From Geosiphon pyriformis uo1 (lineage: Eukaryota; Fungi; Glomeromycota): a stretch of 18,385 nt of DNA. The DNA lies in NCBI GenBank assembly GCA_016748015.1, contig JAAOMT010000676.1, positions 7,408 through 25,792 on the forward strand, written 5' to 3'. Below are positions 1,277 to 18,385 of this stretch, one piece after another. The notes under the pieces are model-generated. The model was given only the letters and a program-made list of their open reading frames with translations. It was not told the DNA's origin and searched no databases. The position numbers were made by a program, and so were the translations under genes. How positions within the stretch are numbered: position 1 is the first letter of the stretch; every line of letters begins with the position of its first letter.

Positions 1277-1761
1277 TGTTATAGGTAATTATTTGGGGTC
1301 TCCAAATCAAATAACAAACTTGTAACTTGGTGCTTAGTGACTAATCTGGTGGATAGTGTTGGTAATGTTGGTACATTGTTATTATCTGAAGGTTTTGTTG
1401 TGGAGTTTTTTGTATAATAGACAGAGATTTAATTGATAGTTTTATCTGTAGCTTCCTAAAACTGCAGTTTTGTCAAATTTTTTTCTCAGCGTGATGGCCA
1501 GTAATTCTCCTGATAAGCTATTCTCAAATTTATAAGTGTTTTGCCCTTGTATTATAGGTCTTTTACCAGTCCTTATAACATCTGTATCTTAGCACTTAAT
1601 TTTTAATCGATTTAGTAAAACCAAAAAAATAACAAAAGAAAATAAAAAAAAATAAAAGAAAATAATAAAACAAATAAAAGCAATTACAAGTTAATATTTT
1701 GTCAATAACCATGATCAAGAGCTATTGTTTCAGTGTGGTTAAGTATCAATTACTATCAACA
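1277..1761 (-). repeat. 5' LTR (~485 bp)
   Basis: Minus strand starts TGTTGATAG and ends CTATAACA (imperfect terminal inverted repeat). Similar to 1-398 (+) and 5375-5907 (-). Confidence 0.8.
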
Positions 1762-1904
1762 TGAAATGTTAATAGTGGAAAGTGGATTTGAGATAAAGAA
1801 TAATTATTTATTAATATTTGTGAATTTGAAAGTTGCTTAGATAAAATCTAAACTAAAAGGTCTGCCTTTTTTACTTCTAATACTACCACTATATATACAT
1901 AATT

Positions 1905-2073
1905 GAGATTCCTCAATTCCTCAATTTTTGACACCAGGAATCTTGAAATTTCTGGAATCTTGCAATTCCTTTTGAGAAAAATTTTGGAATTTTGGAATTC
2001 TGCGATTCCTTGTACAAGAATCCTGAAATTTCTGGAATTCTGCAATTTTTCTTAAAAAGAATCTTGGAATTCC
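1905..2073. repeat. Degenerate array of GGAATTCC-like 8-9-mers with an 80-bp higher-order duplication
   Basis: Many GGAAT(T/C) and AATTCC variants. CAGGAATCTTGAAATTTCTGGAATCTTGCAATT (1935-1967) recurs as CAAGAATCCTGAAATTTCTGGAATTCTGCAATT (2015-2047). Confidence 0.75.
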
Positions 2074-3594
2074 ATATTTACTACAGCTACCTCTAATTGG
2101 CTAATTTATGTGTTAATATACTTCTTATATTTTTATGAGTAACATTCTTTTATAGTTTTTAATATGTTAAATAGTAGTATTTAAATCTGTTAAAGTATGT
2201 AGATAAACTTTTTTGATTAATTTATTCTTTAAATTAATAATAGTTTAATCCAAATTTTAAAAATTAGAGTAATAAGTATTTGTTTTAAGCTAATAAATTC
2301 TTTTAAAAAATTTATTAAACTTTTTAATATAAGTTATAATAGATTCTAATAGTTTTTATTTGATGTTTTAAAAGTAGTTTTAAAAAATAATTAAAGTATT
2401 ATTGTTTATAAACTATTTAAAAAAAGCAGTTTTAAAAGTTGACTATTCTGCAAAAAAAGCAGCCAAGTTTTTGAATTATTTGCCAAAATATTTTTAAAAA
2501 AATAAAAAATTGCTCTTAATATTCTTATTATATTTTATTTATTTGTGTTTTTTGCTTTAGTAACTTAGTCAAGCCACTCTTAAAAACTGATTTTAATGTT
2601 TTTTTTAGAGAATTTAAAAATTTTTGCAATATAAATAGTCATTTTTTTATTTTTATTATTGTCTATAGTTTTTTTTTTTTTGTTTTTTTTTTCAATAGAT
2701 TCAGAAATGTCTTTTTTGTAAGCTAATATTTTTAAATATTTACTTTGGTTTTCTGCTAAATAATTAGGAAGATTAGTATTAGTTTAAAATTAGTTCTAAC
2801 TATTAGATTAAATTTTTGATAAAGTTTTCTGGTCTTAAAAATTAGTTAAAAAATGAATTAAATATTTGTACTTAAGTAAACAAAGTCGAGAAAAATGTAA
2901 TTAAAAATAGTAATTTAAAATTGGTTTTTTATTTAAGTGTTTATAAATATTAAAAGATTTGTTTTTAATGTATTAAAAATTGTGTAAACTAGTTAAGTGT
3001 TTTTTTTTGTTTTTGTTAATTTTAGATTCAAATTTAAGTTTAAGAACAAATTTTAAATCAACAAAATATTTTTTTTTATAAAACTTAATAATATTATAAT
3101 TAAGTTTTTTAAAATAAATAGTGTAAATATCAATACTAATAACTTTTGAATCTTTGTTTAAATAATAAATTAAGTTTTTAAGAAATTTTTTTTTAATTTT
3201 TATAATATTATTGTTTCCAAAAAAATAATTATTAATTTAATTTTCAATATATTAAAAAAATTTTTTTTAAAAGCTGTAATTTTATTTTGGTTTTTAAATT
3301 ATTGTTTATAGTAAATATAAATTAATTAATAATACTTTAAAGTTATTATATCTGATATAATTACTACTTTAATTTAATTGTTGCTGTATTATTTTTTAGA
3401 AAACATCAAATATTACTGAAAATTTTTCTACTTTTTTCTAAATATTGTTAATATTATTTTGCTGGTAATTTTGTTATTAATAAAACTTAATAAATTTTCA
3501 ATAAATTAATTTTTTTTTCAAAGTATTTTTTTATATTTTAAACTATTTATGCTGTTAGACTTATAAAAAAATAACCAATTTTATATTAATTATT

Positions 3595-3770
3595 TGTATA
3601 ATTACTTTACAGTAAAAATTAATTTTTTAACAAAAAAATCTTATCTGTAAATTTTTTAAAATATGTATAATTACTTTGTTGTAAAAGTTAACTCTTTTAT
3701 AAAAAATCCTAACTATAAACTACTTAATAATATAAAAAAAAATAAATTAAAAAAAATAAAAATAAAAAAA
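3595..3770 (+). repeat. Putative 3' end of a non-LTR retroelement: duplicated ~49-bp 3'UTR motif followed by an A-rich tail
   Basis: TGTATAATTACTTT occurs exactly at 3595 and 3664 (69-bp period) and similarity continues ~35 bp further. A-rich tail at ~3734-3770. Confidence 0.5.
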
Positions 3771-3910
3771 TATATCAAAAAAGTTATTTTAGATTCAAAT
3801 TTAGAAGTTTTTAATAATTACTATAATTAATAATTAATCAATATAAAATAATTAATTTTAAAACAAAAATATTTAAGAAAAAATCAAAAACTTTTTGTTT
3901 TCTTAATTTT

Positions 3911-4992
3911 ATGATTATAACCAAAGCAAAAAGTAAAAAAGCTGTAAATATTACTTTTTCTATAGTAACTAATAAAATTTCAACATAAAAAAGTCTTTTT
4001 GTTATTAAAACAGCTAAACATAATGTTTTGGTTACATTTTTTTAAAAAAATATTAATGAAAAGCTGTTTTTAGTAACTATTAAAACATTTTTTTCATTTT
4101 TAACTGGTTTTTTACTAGTTAAAGTTTTTTTAAAGAGATATACTTAAATTAATTCTAGTGTTGTTTTTATTTTCTTTAAGAGCCCAAAAATTTTTAATAA
4201 TAAACCAGTTAATAAGCTGGTCTTTTTTTTTATAGTTTTTACATTTAATGTTATTAGTACTATTTTTTTTAATAAAATAGTCAAAAAGACTAAAGATTCA
4301 AAAAAGTGAAAACAATTATTCATTTCTGCTATTGTTACACAAACTTCTTTGTGATTTTTAATAAGATCTTAAATAAGATCTTTGTTGTATTAATTAGTTT
4401 ATCATTCAAAATAAGCCAAAATTAATCATTAATTATGTTGTTAAATATAAAGTCTTTAGTAAATTTTTACCAGTTTTGAAAAAAAACAACAGTTTTCTAT
4501 TAAGTTACTTGTTCTTGAAAACTGGACTGATCAAATAGAAACTGAATTATTATTATTTTTTCTGGTTTTTGGTGTTATTATTAATGGTGCTTGAGAAACT
4601 ATTACTAGTTATCAAAGATTTACTAAGTAAATAATTTTTACTCTAATATTTAATACTATTTTTAAGATTAAATTGGCTCATATTAAGGCTGTTTTTTAGT
4701 TTATACATGGTTTTTTGAATATAAAATTTGTTTTTAAAGACAATATAAAGTTTTTTTATATAGAATTTGCTTTCCAAAGTTTTTAAATACTAGGTTTTTA
4801 ATTAAGTTTACAAGTTCTGTTTGTTTGGCCACTCTTAAAATTACCAAGTTTTTGGTGGTTTTTGAATTTGGTTTTTTTTTTGCTGTTGTTGCATTGTATA
4901 ATGTATTATTAAGTATGTTTACTACTAATATTAAGATAACTCTTAGTGTTTTTGGTATTGTTTTTTATGTTATGTTGAAGTTTGTTGATTTT
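3911..4992 (+). pseudogene. Decayed ORF1-like region of a LINE-type non-LTR retrotransposon, 3'-truncated
   Basis: ATG at 3911 (MIITKAKSKKAVNITFSIVTNKIST*...), then readable patches: KSPKIFNNKPVNKLVF, VLENWTDQIETE, FKIKLAHIKAVF*FIHGFL, LATLKITKFLVVFEFG, IKITLSVFGIV. The LINE ORF1 assignment rests on recalled similarity to Glomeromycotina repeat proteins and is unverified. Confidence 0.5.
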
Positions 4993-5374
4993 GATAATAT
5001 ATAATTGTTTACTTTAAAAAATTATATACTGCTGTATTTGTTCTCAATTACTGGTTAATTTTAGTGAACAAAAATAATATTTGGATTCTTTTTTTTATGA
5101 ATTAAAAAGAGATAATTTTGTTTCAAAATAAGTTTAAAACCAAGTTGGTCAATTTTTTTTTGGCTGTATTGTTTTTGAGATTAATAATATAATCTTTTAA
5201 GTTGATAGCTAAATGTGTTTTATTTTTTGTTTTCCAAATTTTGGTTATTATTCCCAATTTGCTCTAATTATATTTAAATCTTAAATTGACTTAAACTTTA
5301 CAGTTGTCAAAACTAATGTACTGAAAAAATAACATATTTGAAGAGAAACTTCTGGTTGTTGGTATTGTTTTAGA

Positions 5375-5907
5375 TGTTGTTATAAATAAACTTGATAGTA
5401 TATAGTGATAACATTTGGTGCTTAAAATTTGGGTTTTTGGGGAGTTTTTGATGGTTTTTTTTCAGTAAACTTGTTTAGTGTATTAGTATTATTAGTCTCT
5501 GAAGGTTTTTTTAATTAATATGAATTTACTTATAAAGTTTTTTGGTTATAAGACACAAAGAAATATTTTGTGGTGTTGTAACTTCTTGTATGTGAATGTA
5601 AATTATTTTCTCTGAGCTAACAAGCAGTCATTAGGGTTTGATAGTATTTTTTTACTCTTCTGATAAGCTACCAAGATAATGTTAATATCTAATCTTAAGA
5701 GAAGCTTTCTTTTTTTACTAGACTATTACAAAGTTTATTTTCAAACAGTCAATTTTTTTATGTTGCCACTTTACAAAAGAGAATAAAAAAAAATAAAAAA
5801 AAATAAAAAAATAAAAAAAATTAAAATAAGAAATAAGAAATAAATATTCTGTTAATAGCCATAATTAAAAACTATTGTGTCAACAAGTTAAGTAGTAGAT
5901 AATAACA
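5375..5907 (-). mobile_element. Solo LTR (533 bp) with 4-bp target-site duplication TAGA
   Basis: Bounded by TGTTGTTAT...ATAATAACA (8/9 inverted match), with TAGA at 5371-5374 and 5908-5911. Shares TTGGTGCTTA, TCTGAAGGTTTT, CTGATAAGCTA, an A-rich tract and AATA.CCAT.AT.AA.A.CTATTGT with the 1277-1761 LTR. Confidence 0.8.
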
Positions 5908-6008
5908 TAGATTTGAAAAATTGAAGAGATATTTTATTGATATAATTTCATTTTGGTTGATAGCAACTATTCTTGAAGAGAAAAATATTTAATAATTATG
6001 ACTTGCAA

Positions 6009-6053
6009 GTCTAATTAACTCTGAGAGTCTAATTAACTCCTAAGAATCTAATT
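6009..6053. repeat. Short tandem repeat, 18-19-bp unit GTCTAATTAACTC(T/CT)(G/A)AGA x2.4
   Basis: Directly visible: gtctaattaactctgaga / gtctaattaactcctaaga / atctaatt. Confidence 0.7.
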
Positions 6054-8230
6054 TTTTTTCTTTCTAATTTCTATAATTATTCATTTTTATACATTTTTTT
6101 GTTCTACAGAATTGCTTTTTAATTGTTTTGTTTTTGCTAACTATTATTTTACTATTTCTGTTATAACTTTGTTCTTCTACATTATTACTAGTTATCTTAT
6201 GTTTCAATTAGTTATTTTGTGCTATAATATATTATCGAGTTTTGTATTATGTTATTCTGAATTATTACACATATTCTGTGTATTTTCACATTATTTTGTG
6301 TTATTTTATGTCATCATGTTTTTGGTCACATTTTCTCTATAACTTTAGATTGGTTTTTCTATTCAGATAACAATATTAAAAAATAAATTATCTAACTATG
6401 GACTGTAAAATTCTTTTGTCTTTCTCTTCTAAGGCTCTCAAAGTATTTAAACCATATTTTATAAGTAATATTTCTTATATTAAAGCTTCTGCTTTTTCAG
6501 ATTTTTCTGAGTTTTTTTTTAGTGGTTTTTATTTTTTTTTTGTAATTGTTAATGATTTTTTGATTTTTTTTTAGCTGATATCTTTGAAATTCAATTTGGT
6601 TAAATTGTTAATTCTGATTAGGTCTATTATTAAGCCTGTTAATGCATTAGTTATAATGTTTGAATATTTTATTAAAGATAATTTTATATTAAACAGTGTT
6701 TTTAGTCTTAAGATTAATAAACTTATGATTTATTTGAGTTTTTTTTAGCAAGTTTATTAGTAAGTTGAGAAAAAAAATAGTTTCTTTAAAAAAAAAGTGC
6801 TGCATATAAGATATTAATATGTTTAATAATTCAGAACATTTAATTAACATAAATAATAATATATTTTCTAATTTGATTTCTTTTTAGAAATATAAATCTG
6901 TTAGGATTAAAACTAATCTCTTAAAAACAGCCAAATAATTAGTTGAATTTATTTTTTGTAGTGTTATTTTGTTTAATATTATTCAAAAAATGTTGTCTTT
7001 AGATAAATTTTCTTTTATTGTATTAATATAGTATAGTCTAAACTGGTTTAAGTAGTTAATTACATGTAAAAAACATATAAACTATATTTAATACTAGAAT
7101 TTTTAATTTGTTTTTAATTTCTAAACAGTAGTTGGGCTTTGTTTATTAAATTTTAATAAAAAAATATTTAAGAATTTTTATGTTTTTAGGATAAGTTTTT
7201 ATTGAAATTAATTTATAGAAAAGATATTTAATAAAAATTAATTTTAACTAAGATATATTTTTTTTAAAAAAAGTTCTTCTTTTATACAATTTATTATAGT
7301 ACTATTTTATAATCTAACACTTTTTTTTTCTTAATATTTTGGTAAATTAAAAATATATTTCATTAAATTACAAATTATTTCTGTAAATTATAAATTATTT
7401 TGGTAAACTGTTAAATAATAATTATAATAATTTAATTGATAATTTGAAATAATAATATAATATTAATTAATAATAAATATTATAAAAATAATTTTATATT
7501 AATTAATATCTTAAATTTCAACTGATAATACTAATTAACTTAGTAATTTAATTAATTTATAAGTTGTTTTATAATTATTTTGTCAGTTAATTTACTAATA
7601 AGTATTAGTTTAATATTTATTTATTCTGTTTTGGTATTAGTATATATTATTATTATTAGTTTATTCTAATTAAAACAGTTTTACTAAAAAAATTAAAGAT
7701 ATTTAAATTTTTTTTATTAAATAAAAAAATAGTAGCAAGTATTTTATTTTTAGTAATTATAGTTAAAAAAATCATATTAGAAGTAATTTGGTTGTTGTTA
7801 AGAGAAAAAAAATTGGTAGATTTAATTATAGCTTTTTTTTCAAAAGTATAATATTAAAATTCTGAGTTTTGTAAAAACCAAGATAAACAGCTTGGTTAAA
7901 ATATCTATTTAATAGTACTTAAAATAGTAAATTACTGTAATTTATACTCATAATAATATAAATATAAATTAAAATTGATTTTTTTTGTTTTTTTTTTTTT
8001 TTTATTATAATTGATAATTTAAGATCTTAAATTAATAAATACTAAGACAAAGACTACATTATTATTTAAGAATATTAATAATAATTTTGTAATAATTAAG
8101 ATAAATATTAGAGTTGTTAATACTAAGAAAATAAATATTAATATCTTATTAATTATATATATTTTGATTGTACTTAATATTAATTTTCTTAATATTAATT
8201 AAATATTTTTTTTAGCAATTTCTAATAATA

Positions 8231-8270
8231 TGTTCTAATTTTTAACAATATATTCTAATTTTTAACAATA
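8231..8270. repeat. 20-bp tandem duplication
   Basis: tgttctaatttttaacaata / tattctaatttttaacaata. Confidence 0.7.
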
Positions 8271-8528
8271 GTAATAGTTATGAAGATTTTGTTTTATAAT
8301 TCTTTTTATTTTTAATAATAATATTATTATTAATACTATAGACTGCTGTTATTTTTTTAGTATTGTAAAAACTAATATGTTTTTAAATTTTTAATAAAAA
8401 ATTCTTAGTTAATTTTTTACTTAATTAAATAAGCTTTATATTAATATTAAAAATTTTATTTATAATCAAATTAACAATTTGGGTATGATTAACTTTTTGT
8501 TTAACCAATTTAAAATTATAAATAAGTA

Positions 8529-8581
8529 TTAGGGTTAGGATCAAGATTAGGGTTAAGATCAGATATAGAGGGTTGGGTTAG
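8529..8581 (+). repeat. Degenerate interstitial telomeric repeat tract (TTAGGG)n
   Basis: In-phase hexamers TTAGGG TTAGGA TCAAGA TTAGGG TTAAGA TCAGAT ATAGAG, then GG TTGGG TTAG. Deviations are mostly G>A, matching the local mutation bias. Confidence 0.75.
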
Positions 8582-11345
8582 CATCATAAAACAAAACTAA
8601 TCATGTGCTAGAATCTGTGACAATGGCCAATGAGATAAAAATCACATGGCTAGACCAAGGATAAAATAATTTAACCAGCTGTCACCAAGTCAAGCCAAAT
8701 CATGCAAACCAATTGGAATCCAACACCAGTGAACACTGAAAAGTAGGTTCAGCCAGTTTTTGGCGATTAAAGTCCTTCTGGCTCTATTAACAATATTGAA
8801 AACACTACTACCACAGATAACTATAGCTACTAAGGAGTTGGCATGATCCGAAAATGAAGGAGAAATGACATTATGAATGACTTTACATATAAGAGGCCTT
8901 TTTGGTAAATTAGGAATCTTAACAATAATACTAAAAAAATCTCTTTTTCCATGAAAACCAAGAAGTCAAGGCCTCTTAACCCAAGTATTTTTGTTAAGTT
9001 GAAAGTTAACCACAGACAAAGGATAGCCTCTAGTCAGCAACCAAGCTTTAAATTCCTTAATATGAACTCAGTAACTGGAAAAATCCAAATTATTTCGAAT
9101 ATGATAAATATTTTCACTCTGAATCCAGTTCATAACATATTTTCTAGGATAAAAAGTCTGAAGATCAGTATATATATGAAGATTACATGGTTTGTCATAA
9201 GATTGGACCAAAAATTTAGTAAGATTATCAGACCAGAAAACCGAAATATTCAAATCTAAAAATATAATATTATAGTCATTATTATTAGTGCATTCCAAAA
9301 TAAACATAGAAGGAACAGCAAAAGACTGGTAATACTATACCCAGGCATTAATATCAAATTTATGAGGTTCATAAATAACGATAATATCATCTAAATAATA
9401 ACGAACAATAGTGGACCCAAAAGTATTAACCATAGTCATAACAATTTTGTGTTCAATAGAAGCACAGAATAAATTCACAATAACGGGAGCAGCTGAAGTA
9501 CCTATTGTCAGTTCTTTGTGCTAGTAATAGAATGAATCTTCATAAAGAACAAAGCTATTCTCAAGAATAAGCATCATAAGTTTAACTTCAAAGGTCAACC
9601 AAAGATTCTCAAAATTTGAGTGATCAGATAAAAAAAATTTCAGCCAAGCCCAAATGCATTGATAAAATGTACGAATTTCAATATTGGTATACATATTTTT
9701 AATGTCAAATGTAGTAACAGTAACATAGCCATGATAATAATTCGAAATAAGTTTAACAAAACTCATAGAATTATTGAAGACTGTTGGACTTTTTTAATGT
9801 AAGATTGCCAATATTTGGCTAACTAATGTGAAGCAGTAGACATAATCCAAAAATGATTAAGAGTAATGGAATGAAGAACACAAGGGTTTTTGTGTAATTT
9901 CCATAATCTATAAATTTCAAGAAAACGTAATTCAGAATTATGTAAAGAAAAAAATATTTTTCACAAGTATTTATGAGTATTTTTATGTTCCCTTAAGTCA
10001 GTGCTCATATAAAAATCAAATATATGATTCAAGAGCAATTTAGAACAGTGCAAAACATCAGACACATCACAAAGCTTAAAAACTGAAGTGTCAAAAAGTA
10101 GCTTAAGCATTTTAGTGTTATAATGAGAATAATTACAAATAGTGAGATTCATGTTTTTATTTGATAGAACAACAATCAAGTCATGATTTATTAAAAATAA
10201 TAAAACATTATTAACACATTCAGAGATATTAAAAATACTATTTCTATGATCCTTAAGTACATTGAAATTATTTAAAATGTAGTCAGATGCAAAGAGTAAA
10301 TGCTGATTGAAAATTAAGAGGCTTTCTCTTTTCCTTTCAAAGATTTTACTATAGGCTTTGAGGATTTGTTTTCTGATGTCTGACCACGTTTAATAGGTTT
10401 TAACAAGAAAGGGTTTTGAAGTAAGTTGAAAGTTCGAATCTAACTTCAAGAAATTTATAACAAAAAAGAGAATAATCACAAAAGAAATATTGTGAACCAA
10501 TACCTTCATTGATTTTTTGGCTTTGAGTGGTTGTTTAACTGTTGTTTTTGAGGCCTTTTTTTTCCCTTTTAATCACCTTGTTTTGCATTTTTCACTTTTT
10601 TGTTTGGGAGATTTTTCTTGGCTGGAGATGGGTGAACTTTACATTTTGGGGAAGGTTTTGATACTGGAATCTACAGAAACAATCTTATTAGAAAAATATT
10701 TTTTCAAAACAGGCTTGTGTAGAGTAGAACTAACCACAGTAGAACCAATGACCAAGTTTTTTAAAGCTTAATGAGTTTTAATGAATGTTTTAAACTCCTT
10801 AATTTCTTTATCAAAAATTCTCAGTAAACTACTCTTAGCTTTATCAGAAACCAAGTTATCAGTATGAACTTTACTGATTAAATTGGCAACATCCAAACAA
10901 ACTTTTGAGGGAGACTTATTAATGAGAGCATTATACTTGGCAATTTTTGCCAATAGCAGATTTTCACAAGAATGCTTTAAAGCCACACAAACTTCACCAA
11001 ACGTATTATCAATTATAAGTAAGTCATCAGAAAGAAATTGAGAAAGATCATAAAGAGAAGTAGGTAAAAAAAATTTTGGGTCACAGTTTGAATTAGCAAT
11101 AATTTTACATTTCAGATCATCTATCTTATGAAATAGAAAAAGAACATAATTTTTTTGCTTTAAAATTTAAGGAAATGACATATTATTAAGATTGGAAGAA
11201 CCAATCTTGAGTGCAAGCTAGTTAGCAAGCTTTTGAACAGCAACGAATTTCCTAATGTTCATTAGGGGGATGTCAATGTCTATGTTGTTAGAAGAAATAG
11301 TAGATTGAGAAGTAGATTAAGACATGTTTGATAAAAGGTTAGGGT
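8582..11345 (-). mobile_element. Endonuclease-deficient Penelope-like retroelement (Coprina/Athena-type architecture), decayed
   Basis: Penelope-type RT frame with no GIY-YIG domain, a short 3' UTR, and a 3' end abutting telomeric repeats. The 5' boundary is approximate (11345-11450). Confidence 0.8.
8690..11325 (-). pseudogene. Penelope-like reverse transcriptase with long N-terminal extension (~870 codons, many stops, one frameshift near 9785)
   Basis: ATG 11325 is in frame with listed ORFs 10768-10986 and 9961-10179. After one frameshift the frame runs through ORFs 9521-9766 and 9068-9307. Motifs in order: VHNIS..FLKLDSNF; LIVVLSNKNMNL (cf. PADK); EIYRLWKLHKNP; FDIKNMYTNI (A); IGTSAAPVIVNLF (B); YYLDDII (C, ~9386-9397); FLDLNI (E); YDKPCNLHIY; RGYP. 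The C-terminal end is approximate. Confidence 0.88.
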
Positions 11346-11499
11346 TTTTGGAAACAAGTATAAGATAAAAGTGCTCAAGTAAAGCAAATGGTTGTCTGCA
11401 CAGAAAATTATTTTTAAAGAGTGTTAATCTAAGTTCGAAAGTCGATGCACTACAACCACTCTACAAGTAATGCTTATATACTTGCAATCAAACATGAAA

Positions 11500-14400
11500 A
11501 TGGGCAATTATGGCAAATCTGTTATGGATTTTCTAACTATGTTATTGTAAGAACTCTTTTCACAAACCTCATTACTGAATTTTGAAATGGTAATATTAGT
11601 AGTAATAAGTATTGAATCAAAAAGATCCTGAATTTCATCAATTACCTTTGACTTATATGATGAAAGAACTGGAGCTATAGGACAATATTCAGAATTATCT
11701 AACTTCCTAGCTATTACTTCTTGATTATTAAAGCCAGCTTCACAATATAGGTTGCAATCAATCCAATATGTTTTTTTCTATACTTGATGTCTTTTAGAAC
11801 CTACACAAATTGTACTACTCTTAATAGTATAACCACACCAACTACTCATTACTGCATTAATAAATTTTATTGTAGTATTGAGATTGGGCAATCTTTTAGC
11901 TCTGGTCTTAAAACCAAAGAGTAACAATACATCTTCTCAAATTTTAACAATTTTTTCCCATGATTGCTCGAAAGTCTTAGCCATATCATTACCAGAAAGA
12001 ATATTTATATCATCTATATCTCTAAAACCTATTGATTGGACAAGATTATGTACTGCTTCTTATTGTTTTGCTGAATAAAATTTATGCAAATTGACTGAAG
12101 ATGGATCCATAGATTCATGTGAATTTTTTCATTGCATTTTTTCTTTGATTTTTAGATTTTCTATAGCTTTTGTTGCATTGAAACCTTGTCTTCTAAAATA
12201 TGCCAGCTTTCTAAAATGTTGTAAAAATTCAGAATTATTGAATTTTTTTACAAAATCTATATTACAAAGCTTAATCCAATTATCATTATTTATACTCCAG
12301 TTTTGAATATCATCTTTGCCACCAATATTACCTAAAGCATATGTTCTCCATAAATAATAACATTGTAAAGTCATGTTATCAGCAAAAAAACATATAAGAT
12401 TTTGCTTAAAAATTTCAGCTTTATTGAGACTAATATCTGAAGCATTTGCTATTGATTCTGTATCCAAGCTTTTATATTTTTCTTAATATTCTTAATAGTA
12501 TGAGAAATTTCATTTTTGTTAACTTTTTCAGTATCTTCTGCCAAAATTAATTCAAGAGTTGTTCCAGTACTAGCAATAAGACTACAAAGAATCTCAGAAA
12601 AATATTTGGCCAATAAGCGTCTTTCATATTCGACCTTAATATAAGTCTATGGCTGGAGATAAATCAAGTATATAACAGTCATTAATTTTATTCCATTTAC
12701 AATGTTCTTTTATAACAGTTGACAAGTCCCCAGGTCTCAGAACAAAAAGTTCAGCATGAATGAGATCACAATTCAGTTCTTTGAAAATGCCAGTTTTTTT
12801 ATTATTATAGAGAGAAATAATATGATATGGACAATTGCAAACTCAATAAAACATTTGTGCAAAAGCTTTAGCATATACTCTTGTATTAATATTACTTATT
12901 TCTATAACTGCATCAAAATGATTGGAAATTTCAAAAAAGATGCCAGCTTCTACAATACTTGTATAAACCACACAATCAAGACTACTCCAAGTAGTATTAA
13001 TATCGGCAAAGTCATCTTGCCATTGCTTTCCATCCATTTGGCCAAAATAAATTCATGATAAAATGTGTGAGCCATCTGGTTTTTGTAATTTAGAAGCTTA
13101 GTTTGCCAAAGCTTGTGCTTTTTTGCATGAGATCATTAAAAAAGCAACTCATTTACCTTTCTGAAGCATCTTAAGACTCCTATGTATAGCTTCTGATTCT
13201 TTATTTAAATCATAAAGAATTTTAATAGTCTCATCTTTACATGGCTTATATTTGTTATATCTCCATCTCGATATTGTTTTAAAAAGTTTAAAGTCAATTT
13301 GTTTGCAATTGTATCCATAGAAATAACATGAACAGCTGATTTTAATAAATTCCACATAGCATTTTCAAATTTATGTGCATGAACTCTACTAGACATTTGA
13401 TGTATAATAGTATTATTTTTGTCTAAGATAACTACATAAAAATGCCTTCCATAGAAATTAAGATAATGGGTACTTTCAACTTGGACAATAATAACGTATA
13501 GCTAAATTACCCTTATTTTCCTGATAATGGCATATATAAAGTTCTGAATTTTGCAATATTTCAACTCTAGCTTTAGTCTTATTGTTAAAAGTTTTACGAT
13601 ATGAAATCCAATTAAAACAAGGCAAATTTGCTCTATTTTTGGCTAAAAAATCAAGAATTTCTCTTAGTGTTTTTGTTTTGTTACTAGCAACAAATGAGCA
13701 AATAAGAGTTGTAGTGAGATTCTCACTTAAGAAATCAGGGTAAGCTTTTGGTGCATCTTTCATTTTCTTTACATTAATGATTTTTTCAGATAATTCAACA
13801 AGTGGGCGTGGGTGTTTTACAGCATTGAGTAATCTTTTAATTAATCCCCACTTAGGCTTTTCTTTTGACTCAACTTTGTTGGATACTTTATTGAAACTAA
13901 GGCCCTTGTAATCTGGTTTGTATTGTTTTTGGCAATAACACTTAAGTATAAAATACCCATTTTTTCGAATAAATCCATAGAGTTGATTCTTATCATATTT
14001 AATATCACATATAGGGCATTCTTTAACAGATTGTGCTTCAAAGTTGATGAACCCCTTCTCAGTTCTTCCAATTTGGAGCCACCTATATTTTGCAATAACT
14101 AAATTGGCTTCCTCAACCAAGATATTTTCATCATTGATAGGTTGAGATTCTTGTTTTACTGGCTTCTCTGGAAAAAAGATTCATGGCCAGATTTCAGAAT
14201 AATTCTCTTTAGGTTGAACTAAATAATCCTCCAGCTTTTGAAATCCATTTTAGACTGAAGAGATTGTGAGTCTTTTAATTCTACTTTCTTTTGCCAATCC
14301 AAGTAACCAAAGATTGAAATGTTTTTTGGGAAGACCAATATCAATGAACTTTGAATAAGATTTCCCAACTAATTTAATAACTTTTTCTGTAAAACCCTTA

Positions 14401-15011
14401 AGTTTTCTATAATCCACAAATTGGGCCTGAAGATAAATAATATGCCAACTACATTTATTGGCATTCGATGAACTTGCTAATGCAAAAGAATTTAAGAAAG
14501 GTATACAGTCTGGTATAAGGCTTAATGTATCTGCATAAGTGACTAAAATTCGAGACATTAAATCCTCATGAGTAATTTTTTCACTATCTAGAAAAGAAAG
14601 TTTAGAATCAGAGGGATTAGGCTTTTGTCTTGCATCAATATCAATTATTAAATGAAGAGGCTGATTTCTATCAATACATTTATGAGTGTTAGGCATTCCA
14701 TAAACTTTGGTAGGATGATCAATCACTGTATAACCTTTTCCTGCCATCCGAATTATATATTGAGAATAAATCTCTTCTGATCAATATGCCTCTAAAAGTG
14801 CCGTATTGTTTCTATTAGCAGAGCTGGCACGACCATTTGATGCAAGCCAATATTTATAATATGTATGTCCTCTATGGCTAGGTTTATAATCAAGATCAGT
14901 TAAACTCGTGAGAAGCTTTTTTGCTTTATTATATTCAGCCAATTTTTGATTTAGGCACTGTTGTTGTAACGATTCACATAGATGTTTTTTTGCCTCACTA
15001 GACAAATTCAT
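11500..15011 (-). pseudogene. AEP (PrimPol-like) primase + Zn finger + herpes UL9-like SF2 origin-binding helicase fusion, ~1150 codons, disrupted
   Basis: ORFs 14781-15011, 14250-14747 and 13476-14120 share one frame, separated only by point stops. AEP motifs: LIIDID, KCSWHII, FIDIGL..HFNLWL. Zn finger: CPIC..(Y/H)...LKCYC. Helicase: SFVASNKTK (decayed Walker A), ISYRKTF (Ia), IVQVESTH, VVILDK (Walker B, E>K), MDTIAN (III), VVYTSIVEAGIFFE..HFD (V), AQMFY* (VI). A readable C-terminal region continues to ~11500, and the 3' end is approximate. Confidence 0.85.
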
Positions 15012-15196
15012 TTTATTGATTTGTATATGCGTGTTGTTTGATCTGACAAAAAGTATATATAATAATATTTTGTAACTATAATAACTAGTAGATAAATCTT
15101 TAAAATAAAAATTAATTATTCTCTATTCTTTTTCGGAATGCACTTTGCCAAGAAAAAATATAAATTTGATTCACAAGATTATTATATACAATTACG

Positions 15197-15481
15197 ATGG
15201 TATTTTATCATTGCCCATATATCCATAGAACTGGAAAAATCTGTGGTCAAAGTAGTTATAGATCAGAAGAATGCTATGTTCATTGGAAATCTCCAGTACG
15301 TACTCCTTGTAGAGATTGTGATAAGCTAAATAGTTCTATACATAATGCATGCTATAAACATGTAGGCAAATATCAAAGTAGAGAGAATTATCGCAGAAAA
15401 AAGTGGGATGAATTACATGCAAAAATTGTTATGCTTGAGAATCATATACCTGACTTACCCAATTCTAGACATGAAGTATAA
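15197..15481 (+). CDS. Small Cys/His-rich protein with two CCCH-type Zn-finger-like motifs and a basic helical tail (94 aa)
   Basis: C-x9-C-x9-C-x2-H (CPYIHRTGKIC...CYVH) and C-x2-C-x10-C-x2-H (CRDC...CYKH). The ORF is intact. Confidence 0.7.
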   Translation: MVFYHCPYIHRTGKICGQSSYRSEECYVHWKSPVRTPCRDCDKLNSSIHNACYKHVGKYQSRENYRRKKWDELHAKIVMLENHIPDLPNSRHEV

Positions 15482-15489
15482 TCATATAC

Positions 15490-15660
15490 TTAGCATATAT
15501 CAATAATTTTTTGGATGACCTCTTTGAGTAAAGCTATATCCTCTTTGATCTTATTGATATTTTCAGCAATCTTATTACATAGAGCTATGGATTCTATAAT
15601 CTTATTTTGAGAAAAATGATATTTTGTGCCTGATTGATCTCGTGTCTTACTCATATCCAT
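15490..15660 (-). CDS. 56-aa predicted coiled-coil microprotein (not in the supplied ORF track)
   Basis: MDMSKTRDQSGTKYHFSQNKIIESIALCNKIAENINKIKEDIALLKEVIQKIIDIC*. Heptad I/L periodicity. It ends 8 bp from the stop of the convergent Zn-finger ORF. Confidence 0.5.
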   Translation of the reverse strand: MDMSKTRDQSGTKYHFSQNKIIESIALCNKIAENINKIKEDIALLKEVIQKIIDIC

Positions 15661-15800
15661 TTTCCGATAGAATTACATTAACCACAACCCATTCAATTTT
15701 TGGGTATAGATATACCGACTCACAAATAATTAATTTTCGATTTGAAAGAATAAGTAGGTTAATGTATAATCACAATTTACTTATCTAATATATTATCAAT

Positions 15801-16995
15801 ATGACCATGATAACTGCCCAAAAAACCCGAAACCCCAAAACTAATAGCTTTACCTCCATTTTGGATCAGATCCTAAATAAATATAACCTATTAACTGAAT
15901 CAAACCCACTTCAATTACATGCTCATGCCAATAAGCTTGGTACTATGCTACCAGATTGGAAGGCTCATAAAGATGTGAAAGAGGCTCTCCATCGGCGCCT
16001 ATTCAAAGAAAATCAAATAGAAGCTCTTGTACCAGACAAAAGGGGGAAAAAGCTTACTGTCAAGAAAAGAGCTCAATATTGTGCAAAAACTGGAGATGTA
16101 TCAGATATTTGGTTACATGTCTTAAACTTAGCTGTCCCAAAAAATAATACAGATAAGGCGATTGTGGCAGCCAGTTCCTGTCTTTTGCAATTTTGTAAAG
16201 AATTAGCAGAAGCTGGAGTTGATCCCGAGCAAATTAATACATATGCCAAATTACCAGATATTACTCGAGCTTCTAATCAGTCGACCTAAAATGCCTAAAC
16301 ACTTCTCCTTAGAAGAAGAGCTTAAAAGACTTCAGAATATCCATACCACTGAGATCCTCACTCTACAAAATCTTGCAGATGTAATCATGATGTTGAGCAT
16401 GAGACTTGCTGAAGCAACTACTCTTCGTATTATCTATTATGAGCCTGACAAATCAAATCCTCTGGAATGGTATAATCCCGATTACTTTTGGTATTGTACT
16501 GGGTATATTAAAAATAAAGAAGAAGCAAAAAACAATTCTGAGCCTCGACCATTTCTATCCATGGAAAAGAATCCAAAGCGTGCAAAAGAATTGCTTACCT
16601 GGATTCAAAATACAATAGCGATTGGAAAGTTGCGTGATCCTGTCTATAGTATTAATGGAAAACGTAGTACAGGTATATTTAGTAAATTTTTAAAGCCATA
16701 TGGCATTACAACTAAAAGATTAAGAAAAATCGGAGGTAAACATGCTTCTAGAGTTCATGGTGGTCAAAATCCAACTTCACAACATCTCACTTTCCTCAGC
16801 AGGATTGCAATAAGGCATAGGATGGATCGTCATAATCCTGGAATGTATTATGCCGAGGGTGATACTTCCAATTCTGATCTTGACTCAGATCTAGAGCCTG
16901 AACCCGAAACTCAAGCTTTTATAACTAAACCAATTGATAAAAAGACTTCTACATCTGAAATTAAGGATATCTATGACTTATATGGGAATATCTAG
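15801..16995 (+). pseudogene. Tyrosine-recombinase-fold protein, telomere resolvase/protelomerase-like, split by one frameshift near 16280
   Basis: ORF 15801-16289 (helical N-terminus) overlaps ORF 16219-16995. Candidate catalytic residues: R in MRLAE (16402), K in TGYIKNK (16510), KxxR in KRLRKIG (16714-16725), H in AIRH (16816), Y in GMYY (16846-16851). Acidic tail. Confidence 0.7.
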
Positions 16996-17181
16996 ATTAG
17001 TGATATAATTAATTATTAATTGTCAGATGCGATATGTTTACTAACCACGCTTTTTTGCTTTCACCACATTCACAGTAAAATCTTTATTATCATTGCCGGA
17101 GGTAATCACTTTGTAGCTAAACAATTCAGAGTTAGACCCAGACCCAGATGAAGACAAGGATGAAGATGCAACATCATTTAA

Positions 17182-17544
17182 AAATCTCTTTTTTCTTTTA
17201 GCCTTAGATGGTATGGAGACAATAACAAGCCCACAGGGGACTTTTCGAGTCATAACACCAGCCCCACTAAAAATGACCCATCTAGGTCTGATTTATCAAT
17301 AGAGGAGATCACGAATACAATTAAGAAAATTCTTTCAGATGTTGAAGATAAGTCGGGTTCTTCTGATTCTTGCTTACAGCAAAATAAAAGCAAGAAAAAT
17401 AAGGTCAAGTATTTCATCATAGAATCGGAATCAGATACTAACTCTGATAATTCTGAATCAAGCACTTCTTCATCTACTTCGGGATCAGAAGATACACATG
17501 TATATAAGAGTGTGCAATGTCGCAAAGTAAAAAAGAAAAATTAA
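17182..17544 (+). other. Stop-free Ser/Asp/Lys-rich low-complexity frame without an ATG (gene fragment or terminal exon)
   Basis: Reads ...RWYGDNNKPTGDFSSHNTSPTKNDPSRSDLSIEEITNTIKKILSDVEDK...ESESDTNSDNSESSTSSSTSGSEDTHVYKSVQCRKVKKKN*. A pyrimidine tract plus AG at ~17185-17201 could be a splice acceptor. Confidence 0.4.
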
Positions 17545-17810
17545 TTATAACCACATCGTAACCGCGAAACCACATCACGTTATAATGGGCCGATGTCATG
17601 TGTTTTAAATCCGCGAATCAGAGATCAGCATAGAAGTTCATGGAACATGCCAATAAAAAACCCTTGATGGGTCATAATCTATATATTTATTGCTGAGCAA
17701 TGACTCGAAGAGTCTACACGAAAATCTTTATTTAACCAGTGATTATCTGATATATTTACATTTTAAAACCGCTAACTCTATATAATTATTTTTGCTATAT
17801 AAGTATCGAA

Positions 17811-17869
17811 TTATATCCCATCGGGTAGTGGATCCTCTGCTTTCAACCCACGTCTGGCACGCGATAAAT
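17811..17869 (-). CDS. Predicted last exon of the TET/JBP-like gene (DLSRARRGLKAEDPLPDGI*)
   Basis: 102-bp AT-rich intron 17870-17971 with GTAAGT donor, GCTAA branch-like site and TTTACAG acceptor. A phase-1 splice gives an open, GC-richer exon ending in TAA at 17811-17813. Confidence 0.65.
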
Positions 17870-17971
17870 CTGTAAAGAGTAACGATTATAAATAGCGATT
17901 TTTTAGCAATACATATAATACAATAAAAGGATTAATACGAACGTATTAGCCCATGTGAAATAATTACTTAC

Positions 17972-18385
17972 CAATATTTCCTCGTCTTTTATCGCAAGAT
18001 CTTTCTGGTATCTTGGTTTGACTTTTTTTCGGTTGGGAGAGTGTGATTCGGTTATTCAGATCTCGTACATCATTGAGATCTTGTTGAGAAATCATAGAAA
18101 CAAGCGTCCCACGTGCGTCCCTCTCGACCCCATCCTTGAGATCGTTGTAAACCGAGGAAAAGTCACGCAAATTATGAAAGAACGAAGCATGAACGAAATA
18201 CACTATGCTATGCCGAATTCCTTTCGTTACGGGAAAATTGCCGTGGAGTAGGAGACGTGAAGAAAATGCTACAATCTGGCCTAGCCTTAGCGGAATTACG
18301 ATCTGAAGTTGTGGAAAACAAAGTTCGCCCCCCTCGAAATCGCCCAATGCGACCAAGCAACATAAACTATTCGGCTCGTCGTGCT
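17972..18385 (-). CDS. TET/JBP-like 2OG-Fe(II) dioxygenase, penultimate exon (5' part lies beyond the window)
   Basis: The frame is open to the window edge: HDEPNSLCCLVALGDFEGGELCFPQLQIVIPLRLGQIVAFSSRLLLHGNFPVTKGIRHSIVYFVH. It shows GG.L, the distal His and the RxSxVxF 2OG-binding motif of the DSBH fold. The HxD motif is expected just outside the window. Ends at donor G|GTAAGT (17972/17971). Confidence 0.75.

Follow-up and report, generated by a model that had tools for sequence, protein, structure and literature searches.

A decayed endonuclease-less Penelope-like element in Geosiphon pyriformis and the probable origin of the TTAGGG-like run at its 3′ end

The window analyzed here is an 18,385-nucleotide stretch of the Geosiphon pyriformis uo1 assembly (GCA_016748015.1, contig JAAOMT010000676.1), and all coordinates below are window positions. 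Its minus strand holds, from 11325 to about 8750, one decayed ORF of the Penelope-like element (PLE) type, about 860 codons long with an ATG at 11325. The features of the locus are as follows.

7300..8531, no strand: interrupted AT-rich multi-copy repeat, the likely target (12% GC, no CpG, contig depth; left limit approximate)
8531/8532 (8529..8532), no strand: 3′ junction; TTA at 8529–8531 is common to the flank and the telomeric repeat
8529..8582, minus strand: degenerate (CCCTAA)n array, TTAGGG-like on the plus strand and cut off at the junction (36-nt match, shuffles, same module in relatives)
8577..8610, minus strand: possible hairpin remnant (folds with a short stem, z −0.66; strongest stem-loop −8.7 kcal/mol, both of its controls being stronger)
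8583..8750, minus strand: 3′ UTR (39% GC over 8532–8780, CpG depleted; no Pfam match in three frames)
8750..11325, minus strand: PLE ORF with helical N-terminus, lysine-rich linker, decayed DKN motif, reverse transcriptase (RT), thumb and C-terminal extension, no endonuclease; original stop approximate
11338..11346, minus strand: single AACCCTAAC unit about 20 nt upstream of the ATG (by sequence; another contig, an X2 loose end, has one too)
11347..11500, minus strand: 5′ leader or pLTR remnant with a long stem and a TATA-like box at 11480–11473; 5′ boundary at or beyond 11500

The preliminary description of this DNA had placed a PLE RT on the minus strand, and domain searches bore this out. 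The ORF matched RVT_1 in Pfam (E=1.5e-5), and the RT motifs TTFDIKNMY and YYLDD could be read in it. The ORF carries the TERT-related RT with core motifs, thumb and DKN motif of a PLE, the last reading ADKN in relatives and SNKN in the decayed window copy. Its homologous part contains 13 stops and one frameshift near 9789, where two other contigs have an extra T relative to the window copy. A two-ORF (Athena-like) reading of the window element was rejected, since the break near 9789 is a frameshift specific to this copy. The original stop was set near 8750 from the ends of the relatives' proteins (best five phmmer matches). These five proteins end 3–18 residues past the matched stretch, so the repeats in the window are noncoding. 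In contig run X1, possibly the source sample of the window, 241 contigs lay on 8300–11500 at 80–100% likeness, and the window element is therefore multi-copy; transitions made up 406 of the 431 differences between copies. One X1 contig skips four stretches of the ORF (487, 46, 399, and 371 nt) within 9176–10677, with edges that are not intron-like, and is perhaps an internally deleted copy.

Relatives of the window protein were collected with phmmer, which gave 1552 matches at E≤0.001, whereas the decayed RT drew no match in word-index searches of proteins. Scans of viral and prokaryotic contigs found no relatives of the window element, and the Atlas gave no usable match to the N-terminal fragment as query. 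The named relatives are unannotated proteins of Dentiscutata heterogama, D. erythropus, Cetraspora pellucida, Racocetra persica, Scutellospora calospora, Rhizophagus irregularis, and Funneliformis geosporum, at just 25–35% identity to the window protein (approximate values). Intact ORFs exist among the relatives, including CAB4485906.1, annotated in R. irregularis. The element had been called endonuclease-less, and this assignment held. No GIY-YIG domain was found in the window ORF, nor by Pfam in any of 57 longer phmmer matches scanned. A GIY-like motif appeared in 2 of 150 matches, both distant, and PF01541 was present in one distant match. Proteins of the related group stop about 220–250 residues past YxDD, the closest ones just after the thumb extension.

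Trees were computed with FastTree from 121 sequences, leaving out 54 short or motif-less proteins, and with IQ-TREE from 39 of those 121. In these trees, both built from search matches alone, a wider group comprising the window element, the named relatives in the trees, the array-bearing loci described below, and five unnamed proteins received IQ-TREE support of 98.6/96. A narrow group around the window element received 0.98 from FastTree but just 43/42 from IQ-TREE. The nearest Atlas clusters, basidiomycete and rotifer proteins without GIY-YIG, are at most a lead on Coprina membership. A structure model of the intact relative P0006 (pLDDT 69, pTM 0.57) was compared with the PDB using Foldseek, and its ten best matches were all TERTs, at about 11% identity.

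The telomere-like run lies at the 3′ end of the element. On the plus strand, 8529–8564 reads as the six units TTAGGG, TTAGGA, TCAAGA, TTAGGG, TTAAGA, and TCAGAT, with 0, 1, 3, 0, 2, and 3 mismatches, respectively. Two units are perfect, and the outermost two are the best kept (0 and 1 mismatch). The run matches a perfect repeat at 27/36 nt, with C>T accounting for six of the nine mismatches. It is the top telomere-like 36-mer of the window, the best on the other strand reaching 19/36, and none of 300 shuffles of 8500–8780 scored as high. TRF reported just a 12-nt repeat in 2.1 copies (score 36). A second copy was found on a low-depth X2 contig, which carries 8541–8720 at about 90% with the run joined to the same UTR. 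The hairpin remnant of the window copy was not significant, being no better than its controls. The preliminary description had reported a TTAGGG tract running directly into the RT in the telomere-priming orientation. A G-rich run beyond chance does lie on the plus strand at the 3′ end of a minus-strand ORF, which is the polarity described, but the run is short and degenerate, and about 170 nt of 3′ UTR separates it from the end of the ORF.

In a metagenome scan, 12 related loci came up on short contigs, 11 of them with sequence past the stop. Eight of these 11 have a long (CCCTAA)n array beyond the stop, scoring 31–35/36 on the sense strand, compared with 15–19/36 on the antisense strand and 17–21/36 within ORFs. 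Loci L001 and L010 have two units each, and the array of L008 is degenerate. The last locus (290–1381) is a relative with 19% GC, its array standing at an equal offset. The array starts +152 to +240 nt past the stop in the relatives and about +171 past the inferred stop in the window. Variant units (TCCTAA, ACCTAA, TCTGAA) occur inside the relatives' arrays, and the window run also has variants. Nine of the 11 loci have a stem-loop that ends ≤5 nt from the array start, with folding energies of −21.9 to −33.5 kcal/mol, whereas 22 control anchors gave −1.1 to −16.7 kcal/mol. Shuffle z-scores for nine loci ranged from −0.95 to −5.6, compared with −1.2 to +1.2 for the 71-nt stretch upstream.

Beyond the array, the relatives continue with a spacer of 0.7–1.2 kb, a TATA-like box, in some a candidate hammerhead, a single AACCCTAAC unit, and the next ATG. 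Complete related units measure 3.4–3.8 kb and have a single ORF, which spans 850–1000 codons in full-length loci. Terminal direct overlaps were found in L001 (1–123), L009 (1–123), and L010 (1–159), of 123, 123, and 159 nt, respectively, as would be expected of units that are arranged in tandem or are circular. The spacers of L007 and L011 are alike. Rfam detected a hammerhead (HH9) in one of the 12 loci (L009, E=1.5e-6, below the gathering score), and hammerhead cores were seen by eye in L003, L007, and L011; the four hammerhead-like stretches aligned poorly. L007 begins with 13 perfect CCCTAA units, as a telomere cap would, while its own 3′ array has at most five in a row. In the spacers of L001, L002, L003, L005, L006, and L011, clusters of CACGTG / GTCACGTGAC palindromes, possibly protein-binding sites, stand beside more CCCTAA units.

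Reverse-complement telomeric repeats therefore occupy the sense-strand 3′ part of the window element and of most of its relatives. Because the relatives carry their arrays at an equal offset and continue past them, we take the array to be the element's own, with the window copy breaking off within it. By this comparison of sequences, the TTAGGG-like run is most likely an element-encoded array and not a host telomere, and 8529..8582 is likely the element's putative telomere-complementary priming stretch, truncated at the junction. The preliminary description had expected telomeric repeats at the 3′ ends of other copies. A long array, or in two more loci a pair of units, does follow the stop, but it is internal to an element that runs on.

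The flank beyond the junction differs sharply in composition. The maximum-likelihood GC change-point falls at 8531, with a rise from 12% to 39%, in agreement with the abrupt step reported earlier. Summed contig depth was 1570–3970 on 8300–8513 in the flank versus 260–780 on the element. Among the contig loose ends listed, which are part of a longer set, six flank-repeat contigs from X1 part from the window past 8531 and go on in a shared continuation (agreement 0.84). The flank is therefore a repeat that has been interrupted, with just TTA in common with the array. With 88% AT in the flank, this 3-nt overlap at the single 3′ junction observed carries little weight, having a chance of about 1 in 10 on a rough estimate. 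The first 14 nt of the continuation are absent elsewhere in the window, so a simple insertion with target duplication lacks support. Pfam searches of the AT-rich repeat in six frames gave no match. The wider region 2100–8531 (6.4 kb, 17% GC, 2 CpGs) consists of extremely decayed repeats, with no Pfam match in six frames of 4001–8531. At 1935–2071 lies a 40/80-nt tandem repeat that is also an inverted repeat; its weak miRNA-like Rfam matches are probably due to chance.

On its 5′ side, the element runs past 11345 through the TATA-like box at 11473–11480, and other copies match to 11500, the end of the compared stretch. A CCTAAC-type unit precedes the ATG by 16–88 nt in seven of eight loci examined. 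No telomere cap or telomeric array was found 5′ of the window copy, no hammerhead was found in it by Rfam, and a comparison of its 5′ and 3′ ends for a pLTR direct repeat gave no match. At 11508–15010 on the minus strand lies a decayed gene for a superfamily-2 helicase with a part that its motifs suggest is primase-like; one fragment matched Herpes_ori_bp at E=3.7e-7. This gene is co-oriented with the PLE and ends about 28 nt from its TATA-like box. A Terminon-like unit that includes it seems improbable to us: CpG loss is similar in the PLE and the gene (0.22 vs 0.16–0.36) and contig cover reaches 11500, but no complete related unit carries a primase-helicase gene. Farther on, there are two overlapping plus-strand ORFs at 15789–16995, the second of which has no Pfam match but motifs resembling those of a tyrosine recombinase (Crypton-like). 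A minus-strand fragment at 17964–18383 matched Tet_JBP, a 2OG-Fe oxygenase (E=2e-5). The CpG observed/expected ratio is 0.81 over 15123–18385 versus 0.04–0.36 in the long segments to its left, and with its CpGs kept this part looks young or unmethylated.

The explanation we favor, at a probability of roughly 0.6, is a decayed endonuclease-less, telomerase-like PLE that most likely supplied the run itself, as its (CCCTAA)n array. Within the AT-rich repeat, this array probably base-paired with the end of a break and so primed the RT. The CCCUAA stretch of the RNA would anneal to a G-rich 3′ end. Normally this would be a telomere overhang, and for the window copy it may have been a break whose end read TTA, possibly after telomerase had added units, one or two of the outer ones at most. 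The RT would extend that 3′-OH toward the 5′ end of the RNA. We propose priming within the first array, so that the spacer of about 1 kb past the array would not have been copied while the ORF would be complete. The far end would later have been joined to other mobile DNA and not capped by telomerase, and the copy would then have been killed by methylation-type C>T decay.

A later deletion or rearrangement may instead have severed a longer (tandem) copy within the array and joined what was left to the AT-rich repeat, leaving a junction uninformative on priming. The relatives' apparent head-to-tail arrangement and the absence from the window copy of their spacer of about 1 kb would suit such an event, as would the failure of the flank to resume in the window, the missing 5′ telomere cap, and the surroundings, a nest of decayed mobile DNA. 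Repeats are also plausible deletion break sites in general. We nevertheless consider it unlikely, because, out of about 3.5 kb, the break would have had to hit an array of about 55 nt, and there a TTA that keeps the register of the repeat. Nothing else is missing from the copy as far as the TATA-like box.

Somewhat less likely still is that the run is host telomere, either an old chromosome end or a telomere formed de novo, on which the element primed before being internalized. In its favor, the two outermost units are the best kept, and TTAGGG is the telomere repeat of R. irregularis (bioRxiv 10.1101/2022.10.19.511543), in line with the repeat assumed at the outset. The polarity is also that of Coprina-1_Alen from Ascochyta lentis, which has telomeric repeats between element and chromosome (PMC13159263). 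Yet the length of about 54 nt and the position of the run match the element-encoded array alone, and an 18-nt period with a repeated TCA variant suits a template of variant units better than a telomerase product. The X2 contig, moreover, joins the same run to the same UTR, and the flank comes from inside a multi-copy repeat and not from a telomere array. The fossil host telomere of the preliminary description is not supported as stated by these observations; of its "former chromosome end or healed break", the healed break may still hold and the former end is not needed. It is very improbable that the run is G-rich by chance or is what remains of a coding repeat for Pro and Asn, which it would spell as DLNPNLDPNPN in the frame of the RT. 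Only two units are perfect and the run is in frame with the RT, but the relatives' proteins end about 60–75 codons earlier with three stops between, the relatives have the same array after the stop, and shuffling did not reproduce the score. The coding reading was rejected, as the relatives' stops come earlier and the array is noncoding there.

The window element and its relatives are endonuclease-less telomeric PLEs, a known kind of element, and would work like Coprina and Athena. Reverse-complement telomeric repeats of these two pair the RNA with the G-rich 3′ overhang, and an endonuclease is unneeded (PMC8557442, PMC6431247, PMC13159263). By its features, the window group resembles Coprina, for which the description of Coprina-1_Alen gives one ORF as typical (PMC13159263): fungal, with RT, thumb, and DKN but no endonuclease, the ORF directed away from the telomere-side end, and telomeric repeats at the 3′ border. 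It differs in that these repeats lie inside the unit, behind a hairpin and with about 1 kb of spacer after them, and in that the window copy is internal and without a 5′ cap; the host group is likely Glomeromycotina. With Athena and the Terminons of bdelloid rotifers (PMC6431247, PMC8557442), it shares the missing endonuclease and putative docking repeats in the RNA, and some relatives also have apparent head-to-tail arrays or, in L009, a candidate hammerhead near a repeat unit. Unlike them, related units are single-ORF and 3.4–3.8 kb long, and the complete ones have neither a second nor an accessory co-oriented ORF. Terminons have repeats directly past a hammerhead at the 3′ end, whereas the window group has a long array past a plain hairpin near the stop and a single unit past the candidate hammerhead.

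Endonuclease-bearing Penelope/Poseidon and Neptune have the RT core in common with the window group (distant phmmer and Atlas matches), but carry a C-terminal GIY-YIG. The likeness to TERT suggested by the predicted P0006 structure extends to the same repeat and the same priming polarity; unlike TERT, the window group is mobile and reverse transcribes its own RNA, ORF included, and sequence identity is low. For arbuscular mycorrhizal fungi, the texts consulted mention PLEs just as a repeat class (PMC13443276, bioRxiv 10.1101/2021.08.12.456011), consistent with the earlier remark that such elements are uncharacterized in Glomeromycotina. We found no account of endonuclease-less telomeric PLEs in this group, and the supplement of Craig et al. 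contains no Rhizophagus, Glomus, or Gigaspora. Gladyshev and Arkhipova (2007) and Arkhipova et al. (2017) may already cover such members or the hairpin-array module.

A telomerase RNA has a template boundary element, whose polarity equals that of a hairpin directly 5′ of (CCCUAA)n. By this analogy, and as a long shot, the RT could stall when it meets the hairpin and move back along its template, adding TTAGGG again and again before it goes on to the ORF, which would make it a mobile RT with a telomerase-like template in cis. If true, the group would be able to heal breaks without host telomerase and would show in a living system how telomerase may have arisen. On the favored explanation, telomere-docking endonuclease-less PLEs are extended to arbuscular mycorrhizal fungi. 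In R. irregularis, the intact ORF CAB4485906.1 and telomere-to-telomere assemblies make enrichment at chromosome ends directly testable. The window copy suggests that such elements can dock at internal breaks via their own array, leaving telomere-like scars that could pass for fossil chromosome ends. The hairpin and array module is also a simple substrate for asking if a PLE RT adds repeats like telomerase.
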